Shown here piece by piece: positions 1,276 through 18,808 of a stretch of 64,000 nucleotides of DNA. The notes under the pieces are model-generated. The model made no database searches. It was not told the origin of the DNA and worked only from the letters and a program-made list of their open reading frames with translations. Both the position numbers and the translations under genes were made by a program. Position 1 is the first letter of the stretch; every line of letters begins with the position of its first letter. The DNA comes from an uncultured Candidatus Saccharibacteria bacterium (GTDB lineage Bacteria > Patescibacteriota > Minisyncoccia > Phycocordibacterales > JACOZG01). The stretch spans positions 20,418 to 84,417 of the forward strand of contig CAYNPK010000002.1 of NCBI GenBank assembly GCA_964399075.1. The letters are read 5' to 3'.

Positions 1276-1848
1276 TTATTCCGCTTTTATTCCCTCAAGG
1301 CCCTCTAGAAGTAACAATTCGTATTTTGGCATTTCGTAATGGCCTGTTTCTTCGATCTTTTTTAATAATAATTTCATGTAACTTTGCATGGCGTTCGCTT
1401 TTTTATAGTAATTGAGTTGTTTTTTGGGAATACTTAAAACATCGCCCAGAACCCCTCGACAGTTCTCTGATCCGCATACGCATTTCATGTTCCATTTGGT
1501 TGGAGCAATGGTTAGAGAGTAGTCATAGGTGATTTCTTCTCCTTTGTTGATATCTCTAATTGCAAAGAGTTCACTTGCTTTTCTTAAAGATGAATTTGGA
1601 TTACAGCTGTGATTAAATGTTCGAGACAAACTATCCAAATCTAAATAGGTTCTTTTGCCAATCTGGAGAGGGTCATCAATGTATTCTTTGCCAGATTTAA
1701 TTTTTGCTACGAAATCTTTCGCGGTAAATCTCTCGCCACTAAGCAAATATATTACCTCACCCCTTTTTATAAATCTCCCAGCAAAAACTCCCTTACCATA
1801 CTTCTTGGTATTCTTAACAATTAATTTTTTGTCTGAAAATAAGGTCAT
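1276..1848 (-). CDS. SET-domain protein (putative protein-lysine methyltransferase) with post-SET Cys cluster
   Basis: NHSCNPNS motif, EITYDY, and C-x-C-x4-C post-SET (KCVCGSENC). True start is ATG at 1848 (MTLFSDKKLIVKNT), chosen by comparison with the paralog at 12205..12779. The upstream part of track ORF 1276..2133 is an over-extension. Confidence 0.7.
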   Translation of the reverse strand: MTLFSDKKLIVKNTKKYGKGVFAGRFIKRGEVIYLLSGERFTAKDFVAKIKSGKEYIDDPLQIGKRTYLDLDSLSRTFNHSCNPNSSLRKASELFAIRDINKGEEITYDYSLTIAPTKWNMKCVCGSENCRGVLGDVLSIPKKQLNYYKKANAMQSYMKLLLKKIEETGHYEMPKYELLLLEGLEGIKAE

Positions 1849-1986
1849 GGTGGGGGTTATTGAATTATATAATAATTGGGTGGTTGGGAAAAGCCAGTAT
1901 CGTGTGCTAGCTTGCCTTATTCTGTTATTTAGATTAGTATATGAATGGAGTTTGAGGTCTTTTGTTCGCGAAGGGAGGTGATATAC

Positions 1987-2130
1987 ATGAGTGAGTCGGA
2001 GATCCTTATTGTTCCCGATTCGAAGACGCACGCGAAGGTCGTCGAAAACATCGACTTGAAGGATGCCGTCGATGCACGACCATGCGATTGCGCCGCCTGC
2101 AGCTCCTGCAGGTGTACGCCGTGCAAGTAG
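1987..2130 (+). CDS. 47-aa Cys-rich peptide, candidate RiPP precursor (SCIFF/ranthipeptide-like: six Cys in C-terminal 14 residues)
   Basis: Internal ATG of track ORF 1945..2130, preceded by SD GGGAGGTG 6 nt upstream. Sequence MSESEILIVPDSKTHAKVVENIDLKDAVDARPCDCAACSSCRCTPCK. GC-rich relative to flanks. Sits immediately upstream of an HExxH gene and a radical SAM/SPASM gene. Confidence 0.5.
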   Translation: MSESEILIVPDSKTHAKVVENIDLKDAVDARPCDCAACSSCRCTPCK

Positions 2131-2216
2131 CATGGCTACACCAAAGAAAAGACCCGAGCATGTCTATAAACTGCTCTTTTTTATTTCTATTTTATTTAAA
2201 TTCAAGATTATTATCC

Positions 2217-2945
2217 ATGAACAAACTTCGTTTTTGCTTAAACAAAAAGCTTGATGAGTGCTTGGCCGGAGAATTTCTTAATGTGTCTGGAGGGGGGATA
2301 GATTTCGGCAAGGGGATTATTAAAATACATCCGCAACTGAAACCAGTTAAATCTCTACAAGATGCTATTCAGAAAGAAAAAGCTATTAGGATTTATTTTA
2401 ATCACTACTATCAAATTCATCGAGAAGAGATGGTTCGTAAGTTAAAGCTTGTGCGAAACTCTTGGAGTAAGAAAGAGCAGAAATATGTTGCGATAACTGA
2501 AGATTTTTTCGGCGGTTTTCGATTTTCAAAAGGAAAATATATTGCCTATGCCTCTATTATTGACTGCAATCCTCGGTTTTTAGACTCAAAAACATTTCAG
2601 TTTTTTTATAAAAAATCACTCGCTGACGCTATTCAGACTATTGCCCACGAACTTCTTCATTTTATTTTCTTTGATTTTGTTGAAAAGAGATTAAAAAAGG
2701 AAACGAAACATTTATCAGAGAATCAATTGTGGGACCTGTCAGAAATATTTAATGTGATCGTGCTTAAATCTCTGTCATACAAAAATATTATTAATCAACA
2801 ATTAGTAACTCCTTATCCTGATCACCAGCCTTATCTTCCTCAATTTGAAAAAGCGTATAAAAATTCTAAAAACGCCGAAGAATTTATTAGACGGGGTATA
2901 AGTATTATAAACACAAAAAATAGCGAGACGAGGCTGATAAACTAA
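2217..2945 (+). CDS. HExxH metallopeptidase-like protein, family A (ImmA/IrrE-like motif IAHELLHFIFFDF)
   Basis: Clear paralog of 5388..6038 (CNPRFLDSKTFQFFYKKS / IAHELLHF / LWDLSEIFNVI). Likely start is ATG 2217 (MNKLRF), not 2082. Confidence 0.6.
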   Translation: MNKLRFCLNKKLDECLAGEFLNVSGGGIDFGKGIIKIHPQLKPVKSLQDAIQKEKAIRIYFNHYYQIHREEMVRKLKLVRNSWSKKEQKYVAITEDFFGGFRFSKGKYIAYASIIDCNPRFLDSKTFQFFYKKSLADAIQTIAHELLHFIFFDFVEKRLKKETKHLSENQLWDLSEIFNVIVLKSLSYKNIINQQLVTPYPDHQPYLPQFEKAYKNSKNAEEFIRRGISIINTKNSETRLIN

Positions 2946-2969
2946 AAGAGGATTGTAATGGTATTTGAT

Positions 2970-2997
2970 TTGACAGGTGGGGTAAATTATTTATACT
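2970..2997 (+). promoter_or_regulatory. sigma70-like promoter TTGACA-16-TATACT upstream of rSAM gene
   Basis: TTGACA at 2970..2975 and TATACT at 2992..2997. Followed by SD GGGGTGA 5 nt before ATG 3061. Confidence 0.35.
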
Positions 2998-3060
2998 GTT
3001 TTTAGACTGCCGAAACTACGTTGTTTTGGCTTTGGTCTCTGACAACTAACGGGGTGACAT

Positions 3061-4122
3061 ATGGAAGATTCAATCAGTACGGCGATAGTGAAACCAACAG
3101 ATGGTTTTTGTAACTTGGCTTGTTCCTATTGCTACATGCAGAAGGTCTGTACTCGGGGAAAAATTCGGGTCATGAGTGCGCACGTTCTTGAAAACCTAAC
3201 TGATTTCTTCTGTTCCGAATTGGAAGAAATTGAGTTCATCTGGCATGGCGGTGAACCTCTTTTGGCCGGAGTGGATTTCTATCAAAAGGTAGTTCAGTGT
3301 CAGGAAAGCTGGATCGCCTCTGGTAAGAAAATCGCGAACTTCGTTCAAACCAATGGGGTTTTGTTAAATGGCAGGTGGGCGGATTTCTTTTCCCAGAACG
3401 GCTTTGTGGTTGGGGTGAGTCTCGATGGTCCGGCCCGCGTTCACGATGCGACCAGACGTTTCAAGAGTGGCGGTAGTTCCTTGGTGGCAACTATCAATGG
3501 AATAGAGGTGGCCCGAAAAGCGGGCATCTTTAATGGGGTGATTTGTTGCGTAAGTTCTCACAATTGCGAATTAGCGGAAGAGACCTTTGATTTTCTCTGT
3601 TCCCTGGGGATTAAGAGTATAAAATTTCTCAGGGTCAAGGGGGAATTTGAGGACAGCGTCAACCAAGGTCAATATGTTCGTTTTCTTACGGCCGTCTTAA
3701 GAAGGTGGCTGGAGGTCGATGATCCGGAGATTGAAATTAGAGACATCAAAAGTCTGATAGACATAGCCTTGGGGGGCAATTTCAGAGAATGTGTCTACAT
3801 GGGAAGGTGTGATAAATTCGTTACCGTTTACGGAGACGGATCTATTTACGCCTGTGATAATTTGCCCAAGGTTGATCGATTCTGCTTCGGCAATGTGGTC
3901 CAGACGAGAAAGGAGGTGTTGCTTGGACCAAAACTCCAAAACTTTCTTGCGATGATTGATGAACGTAAGAAGAGTTGCTCGTCTTGTTTTTGGTTTGAGA
4001 CCTGTCGCGGCGGTTGCGCCTATCGGTACCTACAAGAAGAAAAGGAGGAAAATCAATGTGAAGACTTGAAAGATTTGTTTGGCACTGTTCGTGATGTACT
4101 TAAAAGGCACCAGATGGTCTAG
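3061..4122 (+). CDS. radical SAM / SPASM-domain peptide maturase (rSAM no.1; AnSME/ranthipeptide-maturase-like)
   Basis: CNLACSYC (C-x3-C-x2-C) and GGEPLL. C-terminal auxiliary-cluster Cys motif CSSCFWFETCRGGCAYRY. Confidence 0.85.
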   Translation: MEDSISTAIVKPTDGFCNLACSYCYMQKVCTRGKIRVMSAHVLENLTDFFCSELEEIEFIWHGGEPLLAGVDFYQKVVQCQESWIASGKKIANFVQTNGVLLNGRWADFFSQNGFVVGVSLDGPARVHDATRRFKSGGSSLVATINGIEVARKAGIFNGVICCVSSHNCELAEETFDFLCSLGIKSIKFLRVKGEFEDSVNQGQYVRFLTAVLRRWLEVDDPEIEIRDIKSLIDIALGGNFRECVYMGRCDKFVTVYGDGSIYACDNLPKVDRFCFGNVVQTRKEVLLGPKLQNFLAMIDERKKSCSSCFWFETCRGGCAYRYLQEEKEENQCEDLKDLFGTVRDVLKRHQMV

Positions 4123-4157
4123 GTGCCAACTACTCTCTTTCGAGAAGGATTGGTGCT

Positions 4158-4298
4158 ATGAAAAAACGTGAATCTAAACTGAAAGTCCCCCGTGTCTTGC
4201 AGAAGGCTCGGCAAGTTGCCAAGTCTTTTGCGTCGAATTCGAGTTCGGGTTATACCAAGGGGCCTTGGGATCAGGGTCACTGGGCAAACCGAAAGTAA
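4158..4298 (+). CDS. 46-aa basic peptide (K/R-rich leader-like N-terminus, C-terminal GYTKGPWDQGHW); candidate rSAM substrate
   Basis: ATG 35 nt after the rSAM stop, with GAGAAGGA RBS 9 nt upstream. Sequence MKKRESKLKVPRVLQKARQVAKSFASNSSSGYTKGPWDQGHWANRK. An intrinsic terminator follows. Not in ORF track (<60 aa). Confidence 0.4.
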   Translation: MKKRESKLKVPRVLQKARQVAKSFASNSSSGYTKGPWDQGHWANRK

Positions 4299-4336
4299 GA
4301 GCGCGTATGATTATCGCGCAGGAAACTCAAACCAAA

Positions 4337-4370
4337 CGAGTAGTCTATCGGACTACTCGTTTTTATTTTT
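4337..4370 (+). terminator. rho-independent terminator (CGAGTAGTC-loop-GACTACTCG + T-run)
   Basis: Perfect 9-bp stem followed by TTTTTATTTTT. Closes the rSAM no.1 peptide operon and is convergent with the 4363..5247 gene. Confidence 0.5.
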
Positions 4371-5247
4371 GAATGTGTCCTTTTAGAACTTCGATTAGCG
4401 ATTCGAGGTAGGCATTATCAAGAGGAATTTTACCTTCCGTATACTTCTTAGACCAACCATACATGTGATAAGCACATATTTTTCTTGTTTGTGAAAAATC
4501 TAAAATGTTTTCAGTTTTTGCCAATCGTTCGTTTGTAATTTTTACCACCTCTATGCCAAGATATTTCTCTGCTAAATATCCTTCTGGTATAAATGAACTG
4601 ATTATTAGTTCTTCTAAAACAAGATAAGTGTTTTTTGTGCCATAGTTAACTAGATTAATTATCTCTGAATTTTTTTCTGTTACTTTTTTTATTTTTTCCC
4701 AAAGTTGATGATTTTTCTTCAATATCAAATGGAAAAATTCATGAGCCAATATCCCAATAGAAAATTTATCAGGAATAATGTTGTCAACTGGGCACTCCAA
4801 AACTATACTACTTCTATCCGGAGACCAAGAAAACCAAGCCGACAAATTATCATAAGGACTAATCACCAGATTAATTTGAATATCTTCGATCGAGAGATTA
4901 TCCATGCCCGCAAGCGAAAGAGCATCAGCAATCACCAGGTCCAATGTCTGTAAATTATCTTGATAGTATTTGGAAAGTAGTTCGAGTTTTTTTAGAGCAG
5001 TAAGCCAAAATTTATCAAACTCTTGCTCAAAAGGAGCGATGGCTTTTCTAAATTCGGATAACTTATCTTGCCCAACCATCTCTTCAAGGCTAGACCAAAA
5101 AGTCTCGTCATTTTCGGTAGCCAGAAAGAGTTCAATATTTTGAACATCCTCTGTTTTTAATAGATCTTTGATTGTTTGTTCCTTTTTAATATCAACCAAA
5201 AAGTGCAAAAAGTTGACATTTTTTGAAATACTAAAATTTAATGACAT
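4363..5247 (-). CDS. HExxH metallopeptidase-like protein, family B (ILAHEFFHLILKKNH)
   Basis: 294-aa ORF with a single HEXXH. The 5' UTR contains GGAGGA and derives from the N-terminal coding sequence of the 8545..9363-type gene. Confidence 0.55.
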   Translation of the reverse strand: MSLNFSISKNVNFLHFLVDIKKEQTIKDLLKTEDVQNIELFLATENDETFWSSLEEMVGQDKLSEFRKAIAPFEQEFDKFWLTALKKLELLSKYYQDNLQTLDLVIADALSLAGMDNLSIEDIQINLVISPYDNLSAWFSWSPDRSSIVLECPVDNIIPDKFSIGILAHEFFHLILKKNHQLWEKIKKVTEKNSEIINLVNYGTKNTYLVLEELIISSFIPEGYLAEKYLGIEVVKITNERLAKTENILDFSQTRKICAYHMYGWSKKYTEGKIPLDNAYLESLIEVLKGHIQK

Positions 5248-5266
5248 TTTTTATTCAGAATATCCT

Positions 5267-5340
5267 CCAGTCTGGGAACTGTCTTAGGATTTTACCATAG
5301 AATGGCTAAAATTAGAAGGGGTGGTTATTGAATTATATAA
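5267..5340 (-). promoter_or_regulatory. repeated promoter/5'-leader module (copy 2) with extended -10 TATGGTAAAAT
   Basis: Core ATGGCTAAAATTAGAAGGGGTGGTTATTGAATTATATAA at 5302..5340. On the minus strand it reads CCCCTTCTAATTTTAGCCATTCTATGGTAAAAT, then a 45-nt leader with GGAGGA before ATG 5247. Confidence 0.4.
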
Positions 5341-5387
5341 CACATGATAGTTTACACAACTTCTCACGCTTTTTTATTTTTGCCACA

Positions 5388-6038
5388 CTAGTTATTAATA
5401 TATCTAAGGTATTCCAAGCTTGTTTTTACAAAATTTACAACATTTGGTTCTTTTGTCCAAATCCTTTTTATTTCTTCCAACTTATTTTTCAGATCAGGGT
5501 AAAATAGAAGTTCTTCTGCTCCGATAGATTTTTTAATTGATGGAAGATTAAGAAAAATCACATTAAATATTTCGGATAATTCCCACAAATTATTGTCATT
5601 CTCAATTTTTAAATCACCACAAAAATCATAAAAGGCAAAGTGGGTCAGTTCGTGGGCGATAACTTCTTTTCTCATGTCATGCGAACGTTTGTAATAAACT
5701 TGGAAACTTTTATTCTCTAGATAGCGTGGATTGCAATTAAAGATAGACAAGTAACAAGTATAATTTTTTTTGCTGTAATCTTGGCCGAAATATTTCTGTA
5801 ATTCTAAAAATAAAGATTCTTTTATTTCTCTAAAACATAGCTCGGTATCCTCAAGAGTATTTTTCAAACTATCTTGATTCGCAGTATAAAAATTATCTAT
5901 ATATTCAATATAGTTTTCTTTAGTTATGTCCGGATGATCATCACGTATCTTCTTACCAAAATCAGCGCCACCAACAATAGCATCACAAAAAGCCAAATAT
6001 ACTTCTTTATCTAATTGTTTATTGAGCAGGGTGTTCAT
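5388..6038 (-). CDS. HExxH metallopeptidase-like protein, family A paralog (IAHELTHFAFYDF)
   Basis: Homologous to 2217..2945. Its 3' end (5388..5485) is duplicated at 12788..12950. Confidence 0.6.
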   Translation of the reverse strand: MNTLLNKQLDKEVYLAFCDAIVGGADFGKKIRDDHPDITKENYIEYIDNFYTANQDSLKNTLEDTELCFREIKESLFLELQKYFGQDYSKKNYTCYLSIFNCNPRYLENKSFQVYYKRSHDMRKEVIAHELTHFAFYDFCGDLKIENDNNLWELSEIFNVIFLNLPSIKKSIGAEELLFYPDLKNKLEEIKRIWTKEPNVVNFVKTSLEYLRYINN

Positions 6039-6792
6039 TGCTCAAGTATCTTTTCCATGCTTTTTCCGCTTCGGTCGGGCTTATGCCGTATATTTCTTGA
6101 AAAATATCACTATTCTCATTTTTTGTTTTGAATCTATTGGTATTCTGATAAAGAGTTTTAAATTTTTCTTTACCATATTGTTCAATCAAGAATTTTGTAA
6201 ACGACCCAACAAAACAGTAGTAATAAAGAGCGTGATCGTCATCCAGCTCTTTCCATTTTGCGTGATCCATCATTGAATCTACTGGGGGCAGGAGCCCTTT
6301 ATTTGAAGCCTCATAAGCGAGTTTGTCGTGGTCTTCTCCATGCCAGCCGTGGCCAACCATATATTCTGCCAATCCTTCTTGAAAAAAAGCAATTGAAAGT
6401 CCCCACGGTAAGGATAATAAATGTGTATCTTCATGTTCTCCAATTGGTTTAATGTCTTTTGTATACAAAACATGCACAATAAAATCTTTCCAAATGGCTT
6501 GAGCATACCAATCATCACCCATTAATTTTTTCTTTGTTTTCAGATCAGGATAAAAATAATAAGTGATTTTTCTTTCTGGAGATAGAATTTCTAAAAATTC
6601 AATGATTTTTTTGAAAGCTCTTCCCTGTGTTTCTGAAATTTTTGTAATTTCTTTTTCCGCGATTGTTTTAGGTAAATAGTAAAAAATATAGTGTTCAGTT
6701 TCATGTTTGAGCCAAGAGATGTCATTTTTGAAATCCTCTTTGTACGTTGGGAGATTTTGGGTAATTTCAGGTGTGCTCATAATATTAAACAT
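6019..6792 (-). CDS. HEDTH-motif metallopeptidase-like protein (family H)
   Basis: 257-aa ORF with GEHEDTHLLSL followed by EGLAEYMVGHGWHGEDHD. Overlaps 5388..6038 by 20 nt, so probably operonic. Confidence 0.5.
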   Translation of the reverse strand: MFNIMSTPEITQNLPTYKEDFKNDISWLKHETEHYIFYYLPKTIAEKEITKISETQGRAFKKIIEFLEILSPERKITYYFYPDLKTKKKLMGDDWYAQAIWKDFIVHVLYTKDIKPIGEHEDTHLLSLPWGLSIAFFQEGLAEYMVGHGWHGEDHDKLAYEASNKGLLPPVDSMMDHAKWKELDDDHALYYYCFVGSFTKFLIEQYGKEKFKTLYQNTNRFKTKNENSDIFQEIYGISPTEAEKAWKRYLSNEHPAQ

Positions 6793-6795
6793 TAT

Positions 6796-6829
6796 AACAA
6801 AAAATAGGCTGCTTTTCCAGGCAGCCTAT
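6796..6829 (-). terminator. rho-independent terminator after rSAM no.2
   Basis: ATAGGCTGC-loop-GCAGCCTAT hairpin followed by TTTTTTG on the minus strand. Confidence 0.45.
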
Positions 6830-6832
6830 TGG

Positions 6833-8143
6833 TTAGGAGTTGTACTCAAGAAACAACAAACCTTCGTTTAGAGTGGCGATTAGCTTGCGTTGACAGAACC
6901 TCTTTTCGAATCCTTTCTCTCCGTTTTCCACGATCGAGTCATGAATGCACCCACCGCCACATATTGGCAAATAGGGACATTTCTCTTCTACACACTTGTC
7001 TGTTCGAGAAAAATTCTCAAAACGAACATCTTGTGTATATGAGGTGGGAAAATCGGAAACGTGACCGAAATCGAAAGCGGGCCGTCCAACCGTACAGAAG
7101 CATTTTTGAAGTGCTCCATTCGGCTGAAGTACTGCCGAATGCTTTGCGATTGCCACGCACCATGGCCCCACAAGAAACTCGTCAGGTACAGCAAACCCAC
7201 ATTCTTTAGCGACACGCCAAGCAGCTACAGCTTTTTCGGCGGTCATTACTTCGGCCAAGGCTTTCGTGGTAGTGCCAAGAGATGGAACAACAAGACCTAG
7301 ACTTAAATGAATCTTGTTACCATAGCCAAGCTTTGCCAAGAAGCGTATAAGATCTGGCAACGATTCAGCGGTTTCTGTATCGAGAGAGAGTCTCAAGTTG
7401 ATCTTTGGCACGTATCCACCATCGAGCAACATTCTCACATTCGTGATAATCCTATCGAAAGTGGGTTGTTTGTCGTGGCCAACTCTACGGGTGTCATGCA
7501 ATTCTCTCGGACCGTCCAGGGTAATTTGCACTCGCCGTAAATCGTATCGTTTGAGTGCGATTGCCGTATTAGCGTCGAGAAGCAAGCCGTTAGTAGTGAT
7601 CTCGGTCCAATATTCTATTCCTTTCTTTTCAGTAAGCAACTTGATTCTTGTTAGGGCTTCTTTCGCCAAGTGTTTCACCAGAAGAGGTTCTCCTCCAAAT
7701 AAAACGCACTTCAGGGAAGCAACCTCTGGATTGGCTTCAAGGTATTGGTCAAGCCAGTGAACAGACTGACAAAGAACCGCCTCCGTCATCAATCCCAGTC
7801 GTCTTACTCCACGCTCGAAGCAATAGTGACAGTTAAGTTGACACTTCATGGTTGGCAGGAGATGCAATGTGAAGAGTTTTGCCTGTTCATTCCTTGTGTG
7901 GCGAAAGAAGTTACGATACTCGCGGAACTCGTCTTTGTCTTCTGGAACAACAAATCCATTATTGCCAGAAAGAGTTTCGATGGAATCATGGCTAGGCAAT
8001 GTTTGATCATGAAGCCACTTATCCAAAGATTCAATTGTTTTGCCATCAAGCATCGCGACTGCCCCAGTGAGATAATTCTTCACCAGAACATTCCCATCGG
8101 CAAAAGGGTAACGAACCGTAAATGCACTCCATTTGTACCTCAT
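6833..8143 (-). CDS. radical SAM / SPASM-domain peptide maturase (rSAM no.2)
   Basis: CQLNCHYC, FGGEPLL, and C-terminal CVEEKCPYLPICGGGCIHDS. Start is probably ATG 8143 (MRYKWSAF); the track uses GTG 8206. Confidence 0.85.
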   Translation of the reverse strand: MRYKWSAFTVRYPFADGNVLVKNYLTGAVAMLDGKTIESLDKWLHDQTLPSHDSIETLSGNNGFVVPEDKDEFREYRNFFRHTRNEQAKLFTLHLLPTMKCQLNCHYCFERGVRRLGLMTEAVLCQSVHWLDQYLEANPEVASLKCVLFGGEPLLVKHLAKEALTRIKLLTEKKGIEYWTEITTNGLLLDANTAIALKRYDLRRVQITLDGPRELHDTRRVGHDKQPTFDRIITNVRMLLDGGYVPKINLRLSLDTETAESLPDLIRFLAKLGYGNKIHLSLGLVVPSLGTTTKALAEVMTAEKAVAAWRVAKECGFAVPDEFLVGPWCVAIAKHSAVLQPNGALQKCFCTVGRPAFDFGHVSDFPTSYTQDVRFENFSRTDKCVEEKCPYLPICGGGCIHDSIVENGEKGFEKRFCQRKLIATLNEGLLFLEYNS

Positions 8144-8215
8144 GGTAGGACACATCCTTTCTAAAAAAATGTCCCGCAAGCTACACGCCTGCAGGACATC
8201 ATGCACTGCGACTCA

Positions 8216-10372: not shown

Positions 10373-10381
10373 GTAAATCTC

Positions 10382-12102: not shown

Positions 12103-12204
12103 TACGCCTTCCTTTTCAGTTTGTGAATGTACTATGAAGAGGAAAACTTCCTCTTTCTATTAAAGAAGATAACATAAATAAGTTTTTAAGTAAATAGTAC
12201 GCGT

Positions 12205-12779
12205 CTAGAAATTACTAGCTTTTTCGCCCAGCCTCTCTAAGGCTAAGACTTCATATCTCGGAATTTTGTAACCGCCTCTCTTTTTAATTTCTGCTAGTAA
12301 CAGCTTCATGTAATGCTGAATCGCTCCGAATTTTTCGTATTTTTTATCTGTTTCTGAGGAACACTAAGAATATCTCCCAGAACCTTTCGGCAGTTCTCTG
12401 ATCCACATTCACATTTCATTTTCCATTCTGTTGGAGCCATTGTCATGGAGTAGTCGTAGGTTATTTCTTCTCCCGTATCTATATCCCTAAGCGCAAAAAG
12501 TTCACTCTTTTTTCTTATACCTCCGCTCGGGTCACAGCTGTGATTAAAAGTGCGAGACAGTTCATCAAGATCAATATAGGTTTGTCTGCCAATCTGAAAT
12601 GGGTCATCGATATTTTCTTTGCCGGAAATGACACTGTCTACAAGATTTTTTAGAGTCAATTTTTTCCCATCAAGAACGTGGATAATTTCACCCTTCTTTA
12701 TGTCCTGACCAGCAAAAACTCCCTTACCATACTTGTCGGTATTCTTAACAATTAATTTTTTGTCTGAAAATGAAGTCAT
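12205..12779 (-). pseudogene. SET-domain protein paralog carrying a -1/+1 frameshift in an A6 run (pseudogene or sequencing error)
   Basis: Residues 1-157 (MTSFSDKKLIVKNTDKYGKGVFAG...NHSCDPSG...KCECGSENC) are in one frame to 12306. The C-terminal MKLLLAEIKKRGGYKIPRYEVLALERLGEKASNF continues in another frame to stop at 12205. The switch is at the homopolymer near 12343..12349. Confidence 0.5.
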
Positions 12780-12787
12780 GGTGGGGG

Positions 12788-12950
12788 GGTTATTGAATTA
12801 TATAACACATGATAGTTTACACAACTTCTCACGCTTTTTTATTTTTGCCACACTAGTTATTAATAGATCTAAGGTACTCCAAGCTTGTTTTTACAAAATT
12901 TACAACATTTGGTTCTTTTGTCCAAATCTTTTTTATTTCTTCCACAAACT
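12788..12950. repeat. near-identical copy (~165 nt) of 5321..5485: promoter-module core plus the 3' coding end of a family-A HExxH gene (gene remnant)
   Basis: ggttattgaattatataacacatgatagtttacacaacttctcacgc...ttggttcttttgtccaaatc is shared with few mismatches. No intact ORF here. Confidence 0.6.
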
Positions 12951-12995
12951 TTTTTAAATACGGGTTCATGTTTCTATTATATGATATGTGTAGCC

Positions 12996-13622
12996 CTAGC
13001 TATTTCTTATTATCTTTTCTAAGTTAGGGTAATGATCCTCAAATGCCTTTTTGATTTTCTCTGTCTCATCTATCCCAATAGGTATCTTTTGCCACCTATG
13101 AAGTTCTGGAAAAGCTTTATCAAACAATAATTCAACTAAAGTCTCCTTCTGCCATTGTCCTACTTTGTATTTATCTATCAAAGGTTGGATGTGGAGATGG
13201 ATAGTTTCGTGCAAGAGGGTGTTGATAATGCCCCCCGTGTTTTTCTTAGAAATATTTATGATTACTCCATTCGGCGGTGAATAACTGCCACCGATGCCAT
13301 ATTTTGTTAAAACTATTTCTATTTCAGGGATCGGTTCTAATTTCAATTCTTCAATTAGTTTTAATAATCTGCTTTTTTGAGATTCTATCCCTGCTCTTGC
13401 TTCTTGCTCTATGTTTAAAAAAGTTCCCGCCGAATATTCATTATCTATCCTTTTTTCTAAAGCCTCTTCGGTATCGTTTTCTAAATTTTCCATATCCATT
13501 CCTGTCGGGAAAGTTAGATTATCCAATTTGTAGCCATTAGCTTTAAACCAGTCCAACCTCTTGATTGTCTGGAGGATTCTCGTTTTCTCTAATTTTGGTG
13601 AATATTTAAAGCTGAAGTTCAT
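12996..13622 (-). CDS. HExxH metallopeptidase-like protein, family D (LLHETIHLHIQP)
   Basis: 208-aa ORF with a single HEXXH. Confidence 0.55.
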   Translation of the reverse strand: MNFSFKYSPKLEKTRILQTIKRLDWFKANGYKLDNLTFPTGMDMENLENDTEEALEKRIDNEYSAGTFLNIEQEARAGIESQKSRLLKLIEELKLEPIPEIEIVLTKYGIGGSYSPPNGVIINISKKNTGGIINTLLHETIHLHIQPLIDKYKVGQWQKETLVELLFDKAFPELHRWQKIPIGIDETEKIKKAFEDHYPNLEKIIRNS

Positions 13623-13654
13623 GGTTATGTATTAATAATAGACAAAAAAATGGC

Positions 13655-13690
13655 TCCGGACAAATAATGTTCGGAGCCATCAGGTTATTA
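13655..13690 (-). terminator. rho-independent terminator closing rSAM no.3 - peptide operon
   Basis: ATGGCTCCG-loop-CGGAGCCAT perfect 9-bp stem with TTTTTTT on the minus strand. Confidence 0.5.
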
Positions 13691-13700
13691 CCGCTGTGCC

Positions 13701-13859
13701 TCATAGGCAATCAGGGCAATCGCAATCGGGAGGATTGGGACAATCGTCCGGGTCCGGTTGGCAGTACCCATCGCTCGACAAAGACCGAGCGCGTAGGTTT
13801 TGCACGGGTAAATCTCTTGAGATACCCGGCGTCGTCATCATTTCCGCTAGTGCTTCCAT
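13701..13859 (-). CDS. 52-aa Asp/Pro/Cys-rich peptide, candidate ranthipeptide-like RiPP precursor
   Basis: ATG 13859 preceded by GGAGAAAGGAGAG, 27 nt after the rSAM no.3 stop. Sequence MEALAEMMTTPGISRDLPVQNLRARSLSSDGYCQPDPDDCPNPPDCDCPDCL. GC-rich. Below the ORF-track size cutoff. Confidence 0.5.
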   Translation of the reverse strand: MEALAEMMTTPGISRDLPVQNLRARSLSSDGYCQPDPDDCPNPPDCDCPDCL

Positions 13860-13886
13860 GATGCCAACTCTCCTTTCTCCTGGAAC

Positions 13887-14915
13887 TTACCGTCCAGGTA
13901 CTAGGGTTTGAGCGTCGAAGACTGTCCACATCAGAGGACATCCTCCTCCGCAGTAATCCTTATGCTCACAATCGATGCACCTGTTGGATGGGTATGAGTT
14001 GATCCGGTCGTGATTGGTCGACACCTCCTCACTGTTCAATAGCCTTAGGAGTGAGTTTGCGTCATGAAAATCTTGATCGATTTCTCCTGTTGGAAATTCT
14101 GACATTCCATTACACGCAAGGAGGTTGCCAGCTGGGTCGAATATTACTCCCGTTCTGTTTTGGAATTGACATCCCGTGCAGAGTTGTCGCCTCTCCATGA
14201 GTAGACTAATAAAATCCCTTGGCCACACACAAAGTGGTGTTTTGAGAGAGAGGACCATCCTCCCATCCATCAGTTCGTGAAGCTTCTGGTATTGCGACAC
14301 GATATCTGTGACCAAATCAGCTATTGGGATCATTCCAGTTGTGCTAGGCCCCCGTTTGCCGACTGAAGGAGTGCAAGGACTAATGCTCACGCTATTTGCT
14401 CCACACTCTCGCGCAAAGGTCACAAGTTGGAGAAGTTTACCTCGAACGAAAGAGTTGTAGACCAGGCTAGCCCCGCATCCAAATTCTGAGGCTAATCGAG
14501 ATAGTCCAAGTCTCAATTGTTGCCAGTTGGATATGTGTGCCAGACTTTTACCTGACTCCTCATCGAAAGCTTTGATGGAGGGACTTACCCGATCATTTGG
14601 TGATTTTAGATATCCTGACCAGAAAAGATCGTCAGAAAATCTCTCTCCGTTTGTGACGATTGTGGTCTTGATTCCACAAGCTCTTGACTCCCTGTTGAAT
14701 CTTAAAAGAGGTTCCCAGAGCGTGGGTTCCCCCCCGATCAGGTCAATCTGCTTTATCTCCAAGTCTTTAATTATTGACAGAAGCCTTAGAGATAGTGGTA
14801 GGCTCATTGTTTTGCCACCGTCAAAACCTTGGTTTCTTGCATAACACCATTTACAACGGAAGTTGCACGACAAGTTTGTTGTAATCCAGGCAACCTTTGG
14901 TTTGGCTGTAAGCAT
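13887..14915 (-). CDS. radical SAM / SPASM-domain peptide maturase (rSAM no.3)
   Basis: CNFRCKWC, IGGEPTL, and C-terminal CIDCEHKDYCGGGCPLMW. RBS GGGAGGA 8 nt before ATG 14915. Confidence 0.85.
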   Translation of the reverse strand: MLTAKPKVAWITTNLSCNFRCKWCYARNQGFDGGKTMSLPLSLRLLSIIKDLEIKQIDLIGGEPTLWEPLLRFNRESRACGIKTTIVTNGERFSDDLFWSGYLKSPNDRVSPSIKAFDEESGKSLAHISNWQQLRLGLSRLASEFGCGASLVYNSFVRGKLLQLVTFARECGANSVSISPCTPSVGKRGPSTTGMIPIADLVTDIVSQYQKLHELMDGRMVLSLKTPLCVWPRDFISLLMERRQLCTGCQFQNRTGVIFDPAGNLLACNGMSEFPTGEIDQDFHDANSLLRLLNSEEVSTNHDRINSYPSNRCIDCEHKDYCGGGCPLMWTVFDAQTLVPGR

Positions 14916-15029
14916 TTGAGTTTCCTCCCAATATCAAAGAACAAAATGAGATCGGGACCATCCTGAATCTCGTCTAAGATTAAGACTACGTCTGCTATTT
15001 TATTTTGTCAAGATTATGTATCCGTCTAC

Positions 15030-15112
15030 CCCATCTTTTCTTCCAACAGCTTCTTAGTTTCATTGGGATGGAACATCCAGAAGCCCTCTCCCTCTATGTC
15101 GGTTGGGTAGAA
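15030..15112. repeat. truncated remnant of the 3' end of a family-C gene (cf. 8548..8640)
   Basis: ccccatcttttcttccaacagcttcttagtttcattggg...ccagaagccctctccctctatgtcggttgg is about 90% identical to the 8545..9363 C-terminal coding sequence. Confidence 0.5.
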
Positions 15113-15169
15113 TTAGTGTAATATAAAGATATAGACAACTGTATTTTTTGCAAAATCACTCGAAAAGAA

Positions 15170-15460
15170 TTGCCAAGTGAGATTGTCTTTGAGGACGATG
15201 ATTTTCTCGCTTTTTTGGATATTGAACCGAAAACTCTTGGTCATACTATTTTAATACCCAAACAACATTGTACCCAATTAGAGAGTCTTTCTCGGCCACT
15301 GCAAGAAAAATTGATCAATTTGATCAGTAGACGTTCGGCTGAATTGAAAGAGAAATACAAATACACTAGTACTGTAATTCTAATCAATAACGGCGAAGCG
15401 GTTGAAGACATTAAACATTTCCATGTTCATATCTACGGTTGGCCAGCTACAGAGCTTTAA
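15170..15460 (+). CDS. HIT-family (histidine triad) nucleotide hydrolase; N-terminus disrupted, non-ATG start
   Basis: HFHVHIYG HIT motif. The ORF is open back to 15122 (IKDIDNCIFCKITRKELPSEIVFEDDDFLAFLDIEP) with no ATG/GTG; the first start-like codon is TTG 15170. The upstream sequence is the family-C remnant. Confidence 0.55.
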   Translation: MPSEIVFEDDDFLAFLDIEPKTLGHTILIPKQHCTQLESLSRPLQEKLINLISRRSAELKEKYKYTSTVILINNGEAVEDIKHFHVHIYGWPATEL

Positions 15461-15591
15461 TTTGTCATTTTCCACCAAACAAATCAATTAGATTGACTAG
15501 TGAAAGCCAGATTGTATAAAAAACAAAGAAATGTTAGTCTGTAATTGGTCAGATTGGCTCATTGTGAAGTACCATTGAACCCAGAAAGGGG

Positions 15592-15975
15592 GTGATAAAA
15601 TGCTATAATTTATTTATGGATAACGATGTTGGTCAATTCAAAAAGGAATTGAAACTTGTCAACGATGCTTTGGGATCAGAAGTAATGGAAGAAAAAATAA
15701 TTAAATATCTTACTCCTCTTGTGAAGCGTGTCGCTCAAGAGTTCATCGATGATTACCAACGCCAGAAAAACCTTAAACTAACTGGACAAGAGAAAGCTTT
15801 GGCAACAAAAGCTGGATGGGCGCATCTCCATTTGGCTTTACGCAAATACGCCGAGACGGCAATAGACATGGCAGAGGGGAGGAAGAAGCCATACACTTTC
15901 AGTGCTTATTTTACTTGGTTTGTAAAACAAGGAGTATCTGAATATTTGCAGTTTCAATATTTATCAAAAACTTAA
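15592..15975 (+). CDS. hypothetical protein
   Basis: 127-aa ORF with no motif recognised. Confidence 0.35.
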   Translation: MIKCYNLFMDNDVGQFKKELKLVNDALGSEVMEEKIIKYLTPLVKRVAQEFIDDYQRQKNLKLTGQEKALATKAGWAHLHLALRKYAETAIDMAEGRKKPYTFSAYFTWFVKQGVSEYLQFQYLSKT

Positions 15976-15984
15976 GATCATTCT

Positions 15985-16254
15985 CTAGGCTTTTATTGTC
16001 TCAAAATGTAGAACGACTTCTTTTGGTATGGTCATTGCACCGCGAAGGTCGTCATTTTGATTAGTTACTATCTCTCTAGCCAAAACATAATTATCAGGAT
16101 TATCTTCAATCAAAAAACCGACTACGTGGAAAATATGCAATGGGAAATTCTTATTTGGCGTACTTGGTTTCTCCATCTGTTGATCCCAGAGTACGATATC
16201 TTTGTAAACCAAGAAAACTATTGGGTATTTAGCTGTGTGTTTGTTTGTGGGCAT
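15985..16254 (-). CDS. hypothetical small protein (no Cys; MPTNKHTAKYPIVFLVYKD...)
   Basis: ATG 16254 lies downstream of the intrinsic terminator at 16283..16320. The ORF is in frame with the GC-rich segment upstream but is probably a separate unit. Confidence 0.3.
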   Translation of the reverse strand: MPTNKHTAKYPIVFLVYKDIVLWDQQMEKPSTPNKNFPLHIFHVVGFLIEDNPDNYVLAREIVTNQNDDLRGAMTIPKEVVLHFETIKA

Positions 16255-16282
16255 AATATAACTTAAAATTAATAAAAAAAGG

Positions 16283-16320
16283 TGGCTCTGCATGGTGTAT
16301 GCTCGGCCACCTTTTTGTTG
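16283..16320. terminator. bidirectional intrinsic terminator (A-run, GGTGGC..GCAT-ACACC-ATGC..GCCACC, T-run)
   Basis: Two-tier hairpin flanked by AAAAAAA and TTTTTGTT. Confidence 0.55.
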
Positions 16321-16497
16321 AAAGGGGTCATTCATTTGCCCCTCGTCGAACCACGGCTTCCGCCGCCGGAACCGGCATTGCCGGTGCATGCCGCCTTTTC
16401 CACCCTTGGAATTGCGCACCACGGGGAACGGCGTAGCCTTGTCGCTACCTGGATAGCCCATGCTGTCCGGGCGCCGCGCACAATCGTAGTTGGCCAT
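16320..16497 (-). other. GC-rich (~60% vs ~38% background) segment with strong SD + ATG but no stop before an intrinsic terminator: candidate structured leader/ncRNA or horizontally acquired small ORF
   Basis: AGGAGGTGATAAGC ATG at 16497; putative translation MANYDCARRPDSMGYPGSDKATPFPVVRNSKGGKGGMHRQCRFRRRKPWFDEG... The terminator 16283..16320 lies inside the open frame. Confidence 0.3.
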
Positions 16498-16627
16498 GCT
16501 TATCACCTCCTTTCACTGACCTAAAAAAGTACTACCTTGCCTAGGCACTGTGTCTAGGCAACTGGAAGTTAGTATAGCATGAGGATTGTAATTGTAAAGA
16601 ACTTGTGTTTATAACCAAAACTAATCT

Positions 16628-16715
16628 CACCTCATCTTTTCTTCCACAAACTTCTTAGTTTCATTCTCAAGATTCTACCACAGAATAGCTAAAATTAGAA
16701 GGGGGAGTGCAAAGA
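16628..16715 (-). promoter_or_regulatory. promoter module copy 5 (TGTGGTAGAAT) fused directly to a 3'-terminal remnant of a family-C gene
   Basis: ctcaagattctaccacagaatagctaaaattagaaggggg next to catcttttcttccacaaacttcttagtttcatt. Confidence 0.4.
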
Positions 16716-16888
16716 TTTGGTGAGATGACAGCCTTGTTATTTTTTGAATCGGCGTGAGGGGCTGTTGAATAATCAAGAATAAAGTACTAAGTAAACTGCA
16801 AAGGATGTCCTTGATATTTTGCTACCCAGATGTTAATTTGTAAATAGTGTATGGTTGATTCAATTGGTCTTTAAAAAAGGAAGAAGTT

Positions 16889-18199
16889 ATGAAATTATCG
16901 CGTTTTAATGTTTGGTCGCTTTGTGACCATGGTCTCATTATCTTTAACACTCTTACTTGCGCCTTGTCAGTTTTCGAAGGGGATTACATTGAAAAGGTGT
17001 TCCGGGCTCTCAAGAATGAGGACATTGACAGTATTCCAGGAGAATTTTTGCTGGCAATGTCTGAGGATGGTTATTTAGTTGAGGACGAACTCGATGAACT
17101 TGGATTTATCAGAGATGCTTGCTGTGAAAGACGGTCTAAAACGGACGAGTACTCCCTGTGTGTGATTCTTACAATGGATTGCAACTTGGATTGCGCCTAT
17201 TGCTTCCAGAAGCATTCCAAAGAAAATCTATCACAGGTTGAAGTTGCCAAGGTTTTGAACATGTTTCGAGGGATAGCAACCAAGGCAAAGAGGATTGAAG
17301 TTGACTGGTTTGGTGGCGAGCCACTTCGCTCGTTCAGTGTTCTGAAATCCATGAATGATCAGCTTATGGCTATTGCTCAAGCTTCGGGTGTAGATTATCA
17401 GCATTCAATTACTACTAATGGTTACTACCTAAGCCATAAAGTAATCACCTATCTAGCCAAAACTCCTCTCTCGATTCTCACGATCACTCTGGATGGTCCC
17501 GCAGAAACTCACGATCGTAGTCGGCCAACAAAAAGTGGTCAGCCAACATTCCTTAAGATTCTCGAGAATGTTCAGATGGCGATTAAGGCTGGTCTGAATA
17601 TTTCTATTCGGGTTAACATTACTACTCTGAATGTTGATCGGGTTCATGAGTTGTATGATGTCTTGGAGTCGCGTGGTCTCAAGAACAAAGTTGAGGTTAA
17701 TCTCCAGGCAGTGGTTTCTTCTGACGTTAGATCGTGTGAGGAATACTGTCTTTCTGGACACGACTTCGCTTGTCGATCAATGAGGATATACAAGTGGGCA
17801 GCACAAAAAGGATGGGTGGTTTTTCCTCCCACGGAAAAATTGAGGGCTTTGGGATTTTGTGTTGGAGAGTACCCGAATCGCTTCATCACTGATCTCCATG
17901 GGAACTTGTATCGATGTAGTCAAATGACGGACGACGAGATGGTCGGCGCCCTAGATGACGATGGCTCAATCATTCTTCGGGAGACGGAGAATGAACTTTG
18001 GATTAACAAAGATCCTCTCAAGTTTCCTGAATGTCAAGGATGCTCAATCTTACCCATTTGCATGGGCGGTTGTAATCTTAAGCGGCGCGCCGGCAAAAAG
18101 TCAGTAGACTACTGTCTCGACTGGAAACATGATTTACCCGGCTTGCTTGAGGTCTTAGTGCTGAATGAGAGAAATATCGCCCTCTCCCAGCTGGATTGA
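16889..18199 (+). CDS. radical SAM / SPASM-domain peptide maturase (rSAM no.4)
   Basis: CNLDCAYC, FGGEPL, and C-terminal CQGCSILPICMGGCNLKR. RBS AAGGAAGAAG before ATG. Confidence 0.85.
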   Translation: MKLSRFNVWSLCDHGLIIFNTLTCALSVFEGDYIEKVFRALKNEDIDSIPGEFLLAMSEDGYLVEDELDELGFIRDACCERRSKTDEYSLCVILTMDCNLDCAYCFQKHSKENLSQVEVAKVLNMFRGIATKAKRIEVDWFGGEPLRSFSVLKSMNDQLMAIAQASGVDYQHSITTNGYYLSHKVITYLAKTPLSILTITLDGPAETHDRSRPTKSGQPTFLKILENVQMAIKAGLNISIRVNITTLNVDRVHELYDVLESRGLKNKVEVNLQAVVSSDVRSCEEYCLSGHDFACRSMRIYKWAAQKGWVVFPPTEKLRALGFCVGEYPNRFITDLHGNLYRCSQMTDDEMVGALDDDGSIILRETENELWINKDPLKFPECQGCSILPICMGGCNLKRRAGKKSVDYCLDWKHDLPGLLEVLVLNERNIALSQLD

Positions 18200-18250
18200 A
18201 GAATGGTTGCTTTGTTGGTACTCTTAAGTGTTGGAAAGGAGGTGATGAAC

Positions 18251-18331
18251 ATGAAGCGCGTTAAAAAAGCACGGGCGACAAAAGTAGTTACGCCACGTGC
18301 GACGTTCTCATCCTGCTGCAGAAACAAGTGA
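18251..18331 (+). CDS. 26-aa basic peptide with C-terminal SSCC; candidate precursor
   Basis: GGAAAGGAGGTG 8 nt before ATG 18251. Sequence MKRVKKARATKVVTPRATFSSCCRNK. A strong terminator follows. Confidence 0.4.
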   Translation: MKRVKKARATKVVTPRATFSSCCRNK

Positions 18332-18347
18332 TTTTGCAGCGCAGCCA

Positions 18348-18382
18348 AGAGGCACAAGCTAGAAAGCTTGTGCCTCTTTTTC
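18348..18382. terminator. rho-independent terminator (13-bp perfect stem AGAGGCACAAGCT/AGCTTGTGCCTCT, loop AGAA, TTTTTC)
   Basis: Closes rSAM no.4 and the peptide gene. Also sits at the 3' end of the convergent gene 18359..18808. Confidence 0.6.
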
Positions 18383-18808
18383 ATGTTTCTCGTCTCTTCT
18401 TCCCAAGAACGCCGCTACGACATTGTCGACAAATTCTTCAAGTTTGTTTAAGTAAAGTTCGTGATTTTGTCCGAATTTTTTATGATTTTCCAATATTAAA
18501 TCCTCACTGAATTTGTCGTAGTCATTTATTAAAACATGGACTAATTCGTGAACTAAGGTATGTTCTTCGTCACACCAAGGATTCCACGTTAATTGTATGG
18601 TGGCGATTTTCTTTTGAGAATTAGCTTCGAAGCCGCCACTTTGTCGCCATCCATTTTCACGCCAAAAATCCACAATCTTGAGATCTAATTTCCAATCGGC
18701 CATGCCCATTTTCTCCTGCCACTTCCTGAGCAATTTTTCCAGTTCGGGCACAGCTAAACCCCTTTTCTTGTTTTCAAATCCGTAAAATATTTTACGATCT
18801 CCTTCCAT
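18359..18808 (-). CDS. HExxH metallopeptidase-like protein, family E (HTLVHELVHVLIND; SprT/DUF45-like)
   Basis: 149-aa ORF. Confidence 0.55.
   Translation of the reverse strand: MEGDRKIFYGFENKKRGLAVPELEKLLRKWQEKMGMADWKLDLKIVDFWRENGWRQSGGFEANSQKKIATIQLTWNPWCDEEHTLVHELVHVLINDYDKFSEDLILENHKKFGQNHELYLNKLEEFVDNVVAAFLGRRDEKHEKEAQAF

Follow-up and report, generated by a model that had tools for sequence, protein, structure and literature searches.

The 64-kb stretch of DNA analysed here (the window) is part of contig CAYNPK010000002.1 (positions 20,418 to 84,417, forward strand) of an uncultured Candidatus Saccharibacteria bacterium (GenBank assembly GCA_964399075.1). A region of about 17 kb at its start carries four genes for radical S-adenosylmethionine (rSAM) enzymes with SPASM domains, named here R1 (3061..4122, + strand), R2 (6833..8143, − strand), R3 (13887..14915, − strand) and R4 (16889..18199, + strand). 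They are accompanied by open reading frames (ORFs) for short peptides (P1a, P1b, P2, P3 and P4), and the cassettes are interspersed with genes for six HExxH proteins, two proteins with SET domains and a class-I methyltransferase. Four complete modules and one partial module, as defined below, occupy about 11 kb of the 17-kb stretch. An earlier reading of this DNA (the original prediction) had proposed that these are cassettes for peptides made on ribosomes and modified after translation (RiPPs) in a genome of the candidate phyla radiation (CPR), and this core of it is supported; the peptides are syntenic and conserved with the orthologues of the enzymes. Every module recurs in other CPR genomes, and those of R1 and R4 also in genomes labelled as DPANN archaea; the homologous loci from other genomes and metagenomes are numbered within L006–L108.

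All four rSAM ORFs were found where they had been placed originally, and the ORFs, Pfam and a motif scan confirmed their CX3CX2C motif and C-terminal Cys block. Their scores against Pfam Radical_SAM (PF04055) are 46.6–58.0 bits (gathering threshold 29.5), and the CX3CX2C motif lies at residues 17 (R1), 101 (R2), 17 (R3) and 98 (R4). The C-terminal parts hold a CX2-4CX5CX3C block plus three to five further Cys (8–10 C-terminal Cys), a pattern on which all four can be assigned to the SPASM proteins. These Cys are invariant in the alignments of the R1 and R3 families, and the only model that R3 passes is the generic SPASM domain model TIGR04085 (36.1 bits, cutoff 27). R1 (353 aa) and R3 (342 aa) have no N-terminal extension, and R2 and R4 (436 aa each) carry N-terminal domains of about 95 and 90 aa, respectively. 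The pairwise identity of R1, R2, R3 and R4 is 21–29%, R3 being barely alignable with the other three, and each has its own set of orthologues in other genomes (42–77% identity). Because of this low identity and the separate orthologue sets, the enzymes belong to four old, separate families and are not the recent amplification that the original prediction had supposed.

Full-length alignments to many peptide-maturase models of NCBIfam were obtained. The best match of R1 is the model for the anaerobic sulfatase-maturating enzyme (AnSME, TIGR03942; 243.4 bits, cutoff 349.45), to which R2–R4 score at most 90 bits. R1 is also related to DynA, and its scores range from 103 to 208 bits across the models for DynA, DarW, GrrM/OscB, AmcB, YhhB, FxsB and XyeB. 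Given as score/cutoff, it reaches 208/450 for DynA (NF041298), 125/650 for DarE (NF038005) and 153/650 for DarW (NF041300), and for the cyclophane models 153/310 (TIGR04261), 103/450 (TIGR04496), 137/445 (NF041707), 128/370 (TIGR04269) and 149/425 (NF041718). Its best matches in the PDB are anSMEcpe (4K36/4K37, E 6e-44), which ranks first, and the rSAM domain of ChlB. When R1 homologues are aligned, a Cys-Asp pair (C265-D266) does not vary. The best PDB match of both R2 and R4 is the SCIFF maturase CteB (5WGG). R4 scores 227/525 with TIGR04463, 228/600 with Clo7bot (TIGR04334), 188/600 with CefB (NF038107) and 175/400 with geopeptide (TIGR04280), and R2 175, 132, 153 and 151 bits with the same models, all below the same cutoffs. 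As the alignments run from end to end, R2 and R4 appear to share their architecture with these maturases. The distant family of R3 gave an AlphaFold model with a high predicted local distance difference test score (pLDDT 93.7), and the fold search returned only generic SPASM neighbours (SuiB and anSME, TM 0.65–0.68), so the chemistry is not narrowed.

A single ranthipeptide or SCIFF label for the whole array, as first suggested, is not supported. The scores with ScfB (TIGR03974, cutoff 425) are 93.2 (R4), 76.5 (R2), 73.7 (R1) and 29.5 (R3), and the best enzyme score with PapB (NF047865, cutoff 340) is 123. Moreover, P1b has no Cys, and no NCBIfam precursor model matched any of the peptides (for P1a, P2, P3 and P4 none at E ≤ 1).

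In the R1 module, the ORF adjoining the enzyme gene is P1b (4158..4298, + strand; 46 aa, MKKRESKLKVPRVLQKARQVAKSFASNSSSGYTKGPWDQGHWANRK), which consists of a leader P.VL..A and a core PWD.GHW.NR. that is Cys-free and rich in Trp and His. It is followed by an intrinsic terminator (4334..4362, + strand; −27.2 kcal/mol, z −5.5), which is bidirectional and lies also just past the 3′ end of the convergent partner gene H_4363 (4363..5247, − strand; 294 aa). Upstream of R1 lies the best sigma-70-like promoter match of the region (TTGACA-16-TATACT, 2970..2997, + strand), which is a consensus match only. The homologues of R1 form at least 120 clusters at 41% identity or more. In L008, L009 and L010, whose enzymes are 77, 71 and 44% identical to R1, respectively, the orthologue is followed by an ORF of 46–50 aa ending in GPWD(Q/K)GHWANR(K/R/Q), after which an orthologue of H_4363 stands in convergent orientation. 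With a profile of the R1 family, 80 loci were obtained from metagenomes, and among the 20 closest (L024–L043, at least 43% identity) a P1b-type peptide is present in 18, one contig ending too early and one locus having no peptide; H_4363 orthologues are likewise present in 18 of the 20, and the remaining two end before its position. Both leader and core are at least 90% conserved in the family, while every codon for Pro (four), Gly (four) and Arg (six) is in use for the invariant core residues, and this codon variety under an invariant core shows selection at the protein level. Aromatic-X-X units, namely W-D-(K/Q), W-(A/S)-N and repeated W[DEN]K, were found in 18 family members, and some cores carry several W[DEN]K units (e.g. 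WDKAWEKGPWDKGHWANRK). Relatives of R1 at 37% identity or less have no P1b-type peptide. Considering that the core has Trp and His but no Cys, that it contains aromatic-X-X units and that R1 resembles DynA and the cyclophane formers, a cyclophane-type Trp/His crosslink is the most likely product predicted for R1. Beside more distant rSAM relatives two other candidate peptides were seen: a different Trp-rich peptide ending in LDAWQQWSDWDNGHADS in L045 (~1290-1500) and a Cys-rich candidate precursor, MKRDWSKFQPKAVVASPEKQNRTNMGRPCCGGSCIGGNCKAVPKIAAAFK, in L033 (1237-1389, − strand).

In the R2 module, P2 (8216..8356, − strand; 46 aa, …LLKAGNQDLRTPVRLGKDTCGY) precedes the enzyme gene. A hairpin with U-run between P2 and R2 (8168..8200, − strand; −24.8 kcal/mol) is probably a partial terminator setting the ratio of precursor to enzyme transcript, and a second one (6803..6830, − strand) lies between R2 and the gene for H_6019 (6019..6792, − strand; 257 aa, GEHEDTHLL ... 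EGLAE). The genome scan gave 11 orthologues of R2 (45–59% identity), all from metagenome-assembled genomes (MAGs) of CPR bacteria. A P2-type peptide lies upstream in each of the 11 genomes (those of L013 and L017 are known from tblastn only), and the 10 peptides whose endings were read, of 12 counting P2 of the window, end in [GK]D[GT]CGY directly at the stop codon. Furthermore, an H_6019 orthologue follows the R2 orthologue in all 10 loci that have sequence there. The last gene of the P2–R2 operon in the window is H_5388 (5388..6038, − strand; 216 aa), the orthologue of which closes the R3 module in L011. H_5388 is 76–79% identical to its orthologues in L011, L017 and L018, which exceeds the 45–57% of the adjoining rSAM genes and suggests a recent lateral transfer of H_5388.

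The R4 module consists of the enzyme gene, P4 (18251..18331, + strand; 26 aa, MKRVKKARATKVVTPRATFSSCCRNK), which is contained in a 42-aa ORF (18203-18331), a terminator (18347..18378, + strand; −25.0 kcal/mol, z −4.5) and the convergent partner gene H_18359 (18359..18808, − strand; 149 aa). A peptide of the type MKR.K...CCRxx and a convergent H_18359 orthologue are present in five of five R4 loci; in L007, L104, L105 and L018, MKR[IV]K...CCRG[SR] stands directly downstream of the R4 orthologue, with the convergent H_18359 orthologue in all four. The P4 homologue in L018 (~880-990) contains an apparent frameshift (a stop or an indel), which could be an assembly error or gene decay. The contig of L007 (and L006; 4963-5997), on which a full module of R4, P4 and HExxH genes is present, bears the NCBI name Candidatus Paceibacterota, yet it encodes a TFIIB-type transcription factor and is therefore probably archaeal (DPANN). 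Since names from Nanoarchaeota also occur among the members of the R1 and R4 families, the modules appear to be common to both domains.

The R3 module begins with the enzyme gene and continues with P3 (13701..13859, − strand; 52 aa, Cys/Asp/Pro-rich, MEALAEMMTTPGISRDLPVQNLRARSLSSDGYCQPDPDDCPNPPDCDCPDCL), a terminator (13642..13681, − strand; −22.7 kcal/mol, z −3.8) and the partner gene H_12996 (12996..13622, − strand; 208 aa). Orthologues of R3 in L011 (Vogelbacteria, 57%) and L021 (44%) are accompanied by peptides with a leader ME.L....TG[IV] and a core C..P.DDC..P.DCDC, and next after them stand H_12996 orthologues (44% identity). The P3 homologue of L011 has an apparent frameshift in a C-run (7052-7260), for which an assembly error or gene decay is possible. 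Directly upstream of this closest R3 orthologue, L011 carries a gene for an MvdD-type ATP-grasp ligase (4698-5675), which connects the R3 module with the graspetide loci that Makarova et al. 2022 (PMC8939145) described in CPR; a tblastn search with the L011 gene found no ATP-grasp gene in the window. In L012 (a MAG of Prolixibacteraceae), an R3 orthologue of 43% identity is followed by a 67-aa peptide with a related leader and a different core and then by a B12-binding rSAM gene. This orthologue sits on a mobile element (1-12205) with relaxase, primase, integrase and IS21 genes.

In addition, the window holds P1a (1987..2130, + strand; 47 aa, Cys-rich, MSESEILIVPDSKTHAKVVENIDLKDAVDARPCDCAACSSCRCTPCK) and H_2217 (2217..2945, + strand; 242 aa), in which H189, E190 and H193 are invariant and which is a paralogue of H_5388 (32% identity). 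P1a had been taken as the ranthipeptide-like partner of R1. However, H_2217 separates it from R1, none of the R1 orthologues has an ORF resembling P1a nearby, and the P1a family adjoins another rSAM enzyme, so P1a as R1 substrate was rejected as the default reading. A search of 1.8 billion representative proteins gave nine small P1a homologues (E 7e-10 to 5e-4), the family ending in PCDC[TS][AS]C[GN]SCRCTPCK. In L106–L108 the homologue precedes the gene of a 450-aa rSAM enzyme sharing 22–24% identity with R2 and R4, after which an H_2217 orthologue stands in convergent orientation; H_2217 is 55% identical to the convergent gene product in L106 and L107. As this 450-aa enzyme is absent from the window, P1a and H_2217 constitute an incomplete module that lacks its cognate maturase, at least in the window. 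As the motif V-[EQ]-N-[IL]-x10-C is common to P1a, P3 and the L011 peptide, a role of P1a as a second substrate of R3 was considered too; given only 19% identity to P3 and the module found elsewhere, it is kept as a minor possibility.

All five short ORFs have a Shine-Dalgarno sequence (GGGAGGTGAT, a strong one, for P1a, GAAGGA for P1b, AAAGGAGG for P2, AAGGAG for P3 and AAAGGAGGTG for P4), and the original claim that such an ORF adjoins every enzyme gene on the same strand is right for P1b, P2, P3 and P4 and wrong for P1a. The short ORFs had further been described as unannotated, which is true of P1a and P4, whereas P1b, P2 and P3 are already called as genes in the NCBI record of the 86-kb contig. 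Hairpins with U-runs lie 3′ of P1b, P2, P3, P4 and R2 (−15 to −27 kcal/mol, z −3.2 to −5.5 against shuffles), more than the two terminators first noticed. The last 20 residues of P1a and P3 hold six and five Cys, respectively, and the N-terminal parts before them have a net acidic charge, as was predicted, and the two are the only ORFs of 20–90 aa in the 64-kb window that are preceded by a Shine-Dalgarno sequence and have at least four Cys in the last 25 residues. The proposed search for syntenic homologues and a coding signal gave both: the short ORFs are kept at syntenic positions beside the orthologous enzyme genes, and the codons of their invariant residues vary synonymously. Moreover, the modules co-cluster elsewhere, R4 with R2 in L018, R2 with R3 in L021, and R1 with another rSAM gene in L009 and L033.

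The six HExxH proteins belong to five families, only H_2217 and H_5388 being related to each other, and none of the five shows variation in the H, E and H of the motif. Across 20 sequences of the H_4363 family, H169, E170, H173 and E222-G-Y do not vary. The third ligand could be E139/E143 (EGLAE) in H_6019, E212/E222 in H_4363, E156 (SEIFN) in H_5388 and H_2217, and D96/D98 in H_18359. The matches to zincin families all remain below threshold, with 20.2/32.4 (score/threshold) for Peptidase_MA_2, found weakly in H_6019, 16.2/25 for DUF5700, found weakly in H_4363, 14.3/27.1 for DUF3267 and 10.3/22 for M78. As conserved module members with features that fit a peptidase role, these proteins can be regarded as putative leader peptidases, in agreement with the original prediction.

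Taken together, we assume with a probability of about 80% that the region contains four complete and one incomplete independent, anciently diverged modules of RiPP type, each combining a precursor, crosslinking by an rSAM/SPASM enzyme and removal of the leader by an HExxH protein; the modules probably make several undescribed cross-linked peptides. The precursor would be a short ribosomal product whose leader is particular to its family and whose C-terminal core is strongly conserved, and would be bound by its enzyme through the leader, in R2 and R4 probably via the N-terminal domain of the RiPP recognition element (RRE) type, as in CteB. The 5′-deoxyadenosyl radical generated at the [4Fe-4S]/SAM site would then abstract an H atom from the core, and an intramolecular crosslink would form with the help of the auxiliary clusters. 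R1 could introduce aromatic-to-C-beta (cyclophane, dynobactin- or triceptide-like) crosslinks on PWD(Q/K)GHWANR of P1b, R2 a thioether from the single Cys of P2 (KD[GT]CGY), R4 thioethers from the Cys pair of P4 (CCRxx) and R3 several Cys-to-Asp-type thioethers in P3. For R2, R3 and R4 thioethers are most likely, given the Cys-bearing cores and the CteB-type relatives. Finally, the small cytoplasmic HExxH partner, a putative zinc peptidase, would cut off the leader.

Several points weigh against this interpretation. No score of R1–R4 reaches the curated NCBIfam cutoff of any characterised family, and every crosslink type named above is a prediction. P2 has a single Cys, and P1b, P2 and P4 have strongly basic leaders, which is unusual among RiPPs. 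Inside the modules there is no exporter or immunity gene. As for the HExxH proteins, comparison of the families by hhalign showed the motif helix alone in common and a PDB profile search with H_6019 gave no match. Their peptidase role rests on the motif and the strict synteny, because none of them matched a Pfam or NCBIfam model above threshold and a single-sequence AlphaFold model of H_6019 (pLDDT 38) was unusable. It is unlikely, yet deserves consideration, that they confer immunity, bind the leader as scaffolds or modify the peptide as hydrolases and that another enzyme removes the leader, since they fall into five unrelated families, none over the threshold of a peptidase model. A leader-binding partner would also make sense because R1 and R3 lack an RRE-type N-terminal domain. 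In addition, the GC content of the HExxH genes (30–38% in five of the six, as in the SET and CYTH genes, and 39% in H_18359) is far below that of the rSAM and peptide genes (45–56%, resembling EF-Tu and EF-G), and window positions 1–20000 are a mosaic in composition. Nevertheless, each family keeps the H, E and H without exception, the third-ligand candidates EGLAE, E222-G-Y and SEIFN are conserved, and the zincin matches are weak and recurrent, all of which speaks against this alternative.

The lack of exporter and immunity genes and the near-invariant cores, conserved across enzymes sharing only 43–77% identity, could also mean that the modules yield peptide-derived cofactors or intracellular small molecules in the manner of pyrroloquinoline quinone (PQQ) or mycofactocin, the HExxH protease excising a modified fragment for use in the cell. 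A peptidase-like gene is always paired with the enzyme, as PqqF and MftE are paired with the rSAM enzyme in those pathways, and P2 ends in ...CGY directly at the stop codon, resembling the ...GVY end of MftA. However, no oxidoreductase or other cofactor-using enzyme is conserved beside the modules, neither MftC nor PqqE ranks with the better matches of R1, R2 or R4 (MftC lies outside the 25 best of the 60 families matching R2 and so below 43 bits), and PqqE matches R3 with only 33.6 bits. The redox metabolism of CPR bacteria is very reduced, and conserved cores are known in true RiPP families too, such as SCIFF and darobactin. A cofactor-like role thus seems improbable to us. For R1, the AnSME model as best NCBIfam match, anSMEcpe as best PDB match and the invariant C265-D266 would agree with a sulfatase maturase making formylglycine, with P1b being incidental. 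This was rejected as very improbable: the score is below the cutoff, no sulfatase is annotated or matched by Pfam in the R1-family loci L008–L010, the orthologues are tied instead to the P1b peptide and H_4363, and the P1b core has no C/S-x-P-x-R motif. The original prediction had asked for this comparison by profile search. Finally, weak matches to viperin, with 26–58 bits in PADLOC (pVip) and 52.6 bits with the NCBIfam prokaryotic viperin model, might point to antiviral or other defence enzymes beside chance ORFs. However, nothing beyond the generic rSAM core is matched, and the viperin model has a cutoff of 180, far above the score. The enzymes have C-terminal SPASM domains, the peptides encoded by the short ORFs are conserved over synonymous codon changes, and PADLOC matched none of the HExxH proteins, so this reading was rejected as very improbable. 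Modular RiPP biosynthesis therefore remains the preferred explanation.

The origin of the window from a CPR bacterium, which had been proposed as well, is well supported by gene content and homologue names. The named close homologues of all four enzymes are mostly from Paceibacterota, Parcubacteria, Portnoybacteria, Vogelbacteria, Wolfebacteria, ‘Saccharibacteria’, Minisyncoccia and Patescibacteria and in a few cases from Nanoarchaeota, and more distant R3 homologues are from Proteobacteria or Bacteroidota. In the ribosomal-protein operon S5 is followed by L15 after 10 bases (39918-40871, + strand), with no L30 gene in the usual slot between them. A transfer-messenger RNA (tmRNA) is also encoded in the window, while Rfam and tRNA scans gave no match in the module region. 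At 59160-59233 (− strand) there is a tRNA-Ile with the anticodon TAT; in most bacteria AUA is decoded instead by a lysidine-modified CAT tRNA.

The region shows several traces of duplication, namely SET1 and SET2 (67.5% identity), H_2217 and H_5388, two gene remnants and promoter-like fragments. One remnant (12783-12965, unstranded) is a 93% copy of 5318-5500, i.e. the 3′ end of H_5388 and the downstream spacer, and would mark a former H_5388-type gene that closed the R3 module. The other (15028-15112) is an 89% copy of 8547-8631, the 3′ end of the 272-aa gene X_8545 (8545-9363), and both can be regarded as signs of rearrangement between the modules. Repeated promoter-like modules lie at 5254-5340, 9335-9421, 16637-16723, 18871-18909, 12767-12805 and ~1841-1870, upstream of minus-strand genes. 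The repeat CCCCTTCTAATTTTAGCCATTCTGTGGTAGAATC was found upstream of H_4363, X_8545 and orf15985-16506, H_18359 having only its first part CTCTTCTAATTTTAGCCAT, and the repeat TTATATAATTCAATAACC upstream of H_4363, H_18359, SET1 and SET2. In X_8545 the promoter-like repeat runs into the first 10 codons; this gene was rejected as a module member, as none was found near R2 orthologues. The SET proteins and the class-I methyltransferase, for which a tailoring role had been proposed, are conserved beside none of the orthologous modules and were dismissed likewise. Two CYTH-domain proteins (9442-10056, + strand; 20073-20681, − strand) and a HIT protein (15170-15460) are encoded among the modules, and CYTH and HIT genes also occur near the R3 module of L011. 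The gene at 10382-11536 (− strand) encodes a dihydroorotate-dehydrogenase-like protein with a fused C-terminal 2x[4Fe-4S] ferredoxin domain and overlaps the start of a guanylate-kinase-like gene (11500-12102).

For the minimal genomes of CPR and DPANN, surveys usually report biosynthetic clusters to be few or absent (PMC9765116, PMC11613949). Makarova et al. 2022 (PMC8939145) described CPR graspetide loci with a SPASM rSAM enzyme, a UbiE-like methyltransferase and zincin peptidases, in most of which the precursors were not identified. Among the papers listed in full-text searches, those for GHWANR and DGCGY were unrelated, none describes the peptide motifs or ties cyclophanes or triceptides to CPR, and the only description of such modules is that of Makarova et al. 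The original statement that such loci had not been described in CPR is only partly true, as SPASM rSAM enzymes with zincins had been reported in the graspetide loci. The window now supplies precursors for CPR SPASM loci of the kind earlier left without them. Five concrete precursor families absent from the curated libraries are obtained (PWD.GHW.NR., GKDGCGY, CCRG, the Cys/Asp/Pro-rich type and PCDCxxCxSCRCTPCK), together with five new families of HExxH proteins as candidate leader peptidases. Moreover, the minimal three-gene cassettes are directly amenable to heterologous expression. It is possible, though we offer it only tentatively, that the conserved crosslinked peptides, foremost PWDKGHWANRK, form an ‘episymbiont toolkit’ exchanged between CPR and DPANN under strong purifying selection in minimal genomes. 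They might be kept because of an action on the host, for example by mimicking a beta-strand as dynobactin does or by working in attachment or signalling, or because of use as a new cofactor of peptide origin; in either case they would differ from ordinary bacteriocins specific to a strain. Should the products act on hosts, CPR episymbiosis would have in them some of its first molecular effectors.

Compared with known systems, the R1 module is closest to those of daropeptides (DarE, DynA) and triceptides (XyeB, GrrM/OscB, YhhB, FxsB, AmcB), which also have a SPASM enzyme of about 350 aa without an RRE domain, and the Trp/His-rich core of P1b resembles theirs in its aromatic-X-X units near the C-terminus. 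It differs in that R1 is below every cutoff, core and leader of P1b match no NCBIfam precursor model, R1 is always paired with a 290-aa HExxH protein, and the crosslink itself is predicted; furthermore, their hosts are Proteobacteria or Firmicutes, whereas those of R1 are CPR bacteria and DPANN-labelled archaea. AnSME (TIGR03942; 4K36-4K39) is like R1 in length, in the motifs for two fully Cys-ligated auxiliary clusters and in the conserved Cys-Asp pair, and unlike it in that the partner of R1 is a peptide of 35–55 aa without C/S-x-P-x-R and not a sulfatase, none of which is found in the relatives’ loci. R2 and R4 share with CteB, PapB, TIGR04463, Clo7bot, CefB and the geopeptide maturases the order of an N-terminal domain of about 90 aa, the rSAM core and SPASM, as well as scores of 132–228 bits and substrates with C-terminal Cys, but these scores are far below the cutoffs of 400–600 and a dedicated HExxH partner is present. 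SCIFF precursors have six Cys, whereas P2 with one Cys and P4 with a Cys pair are short and basic; P1a and P3 are Cys-rich like them, which is a resemblance only, as no SCIFF precursor model matched. The pathways of PQQ (PqqA/PqqE/PqqF) and mycofactocin (MftA/MftC/MftE) resemble the modules in joining an rSAM/SPASM enzyme and a peptidase to a short precursor whose C-terminal core does not vary, and differ in their further genes, no homologues of PqqB/C/D or MftB/D/F being present in the module loci. The ‘branch 2’ graspetide loci of CPR (PMC8939145) carry an ATP-grasp gene, which the window lacks, and the precursors of the window adjoin the rSAM gene instead of an ATP-grasp gene; these loci nevertheless belong to the same host group and combine a SPASM maturase with zincin-like peptidases, as the modules of the window do.

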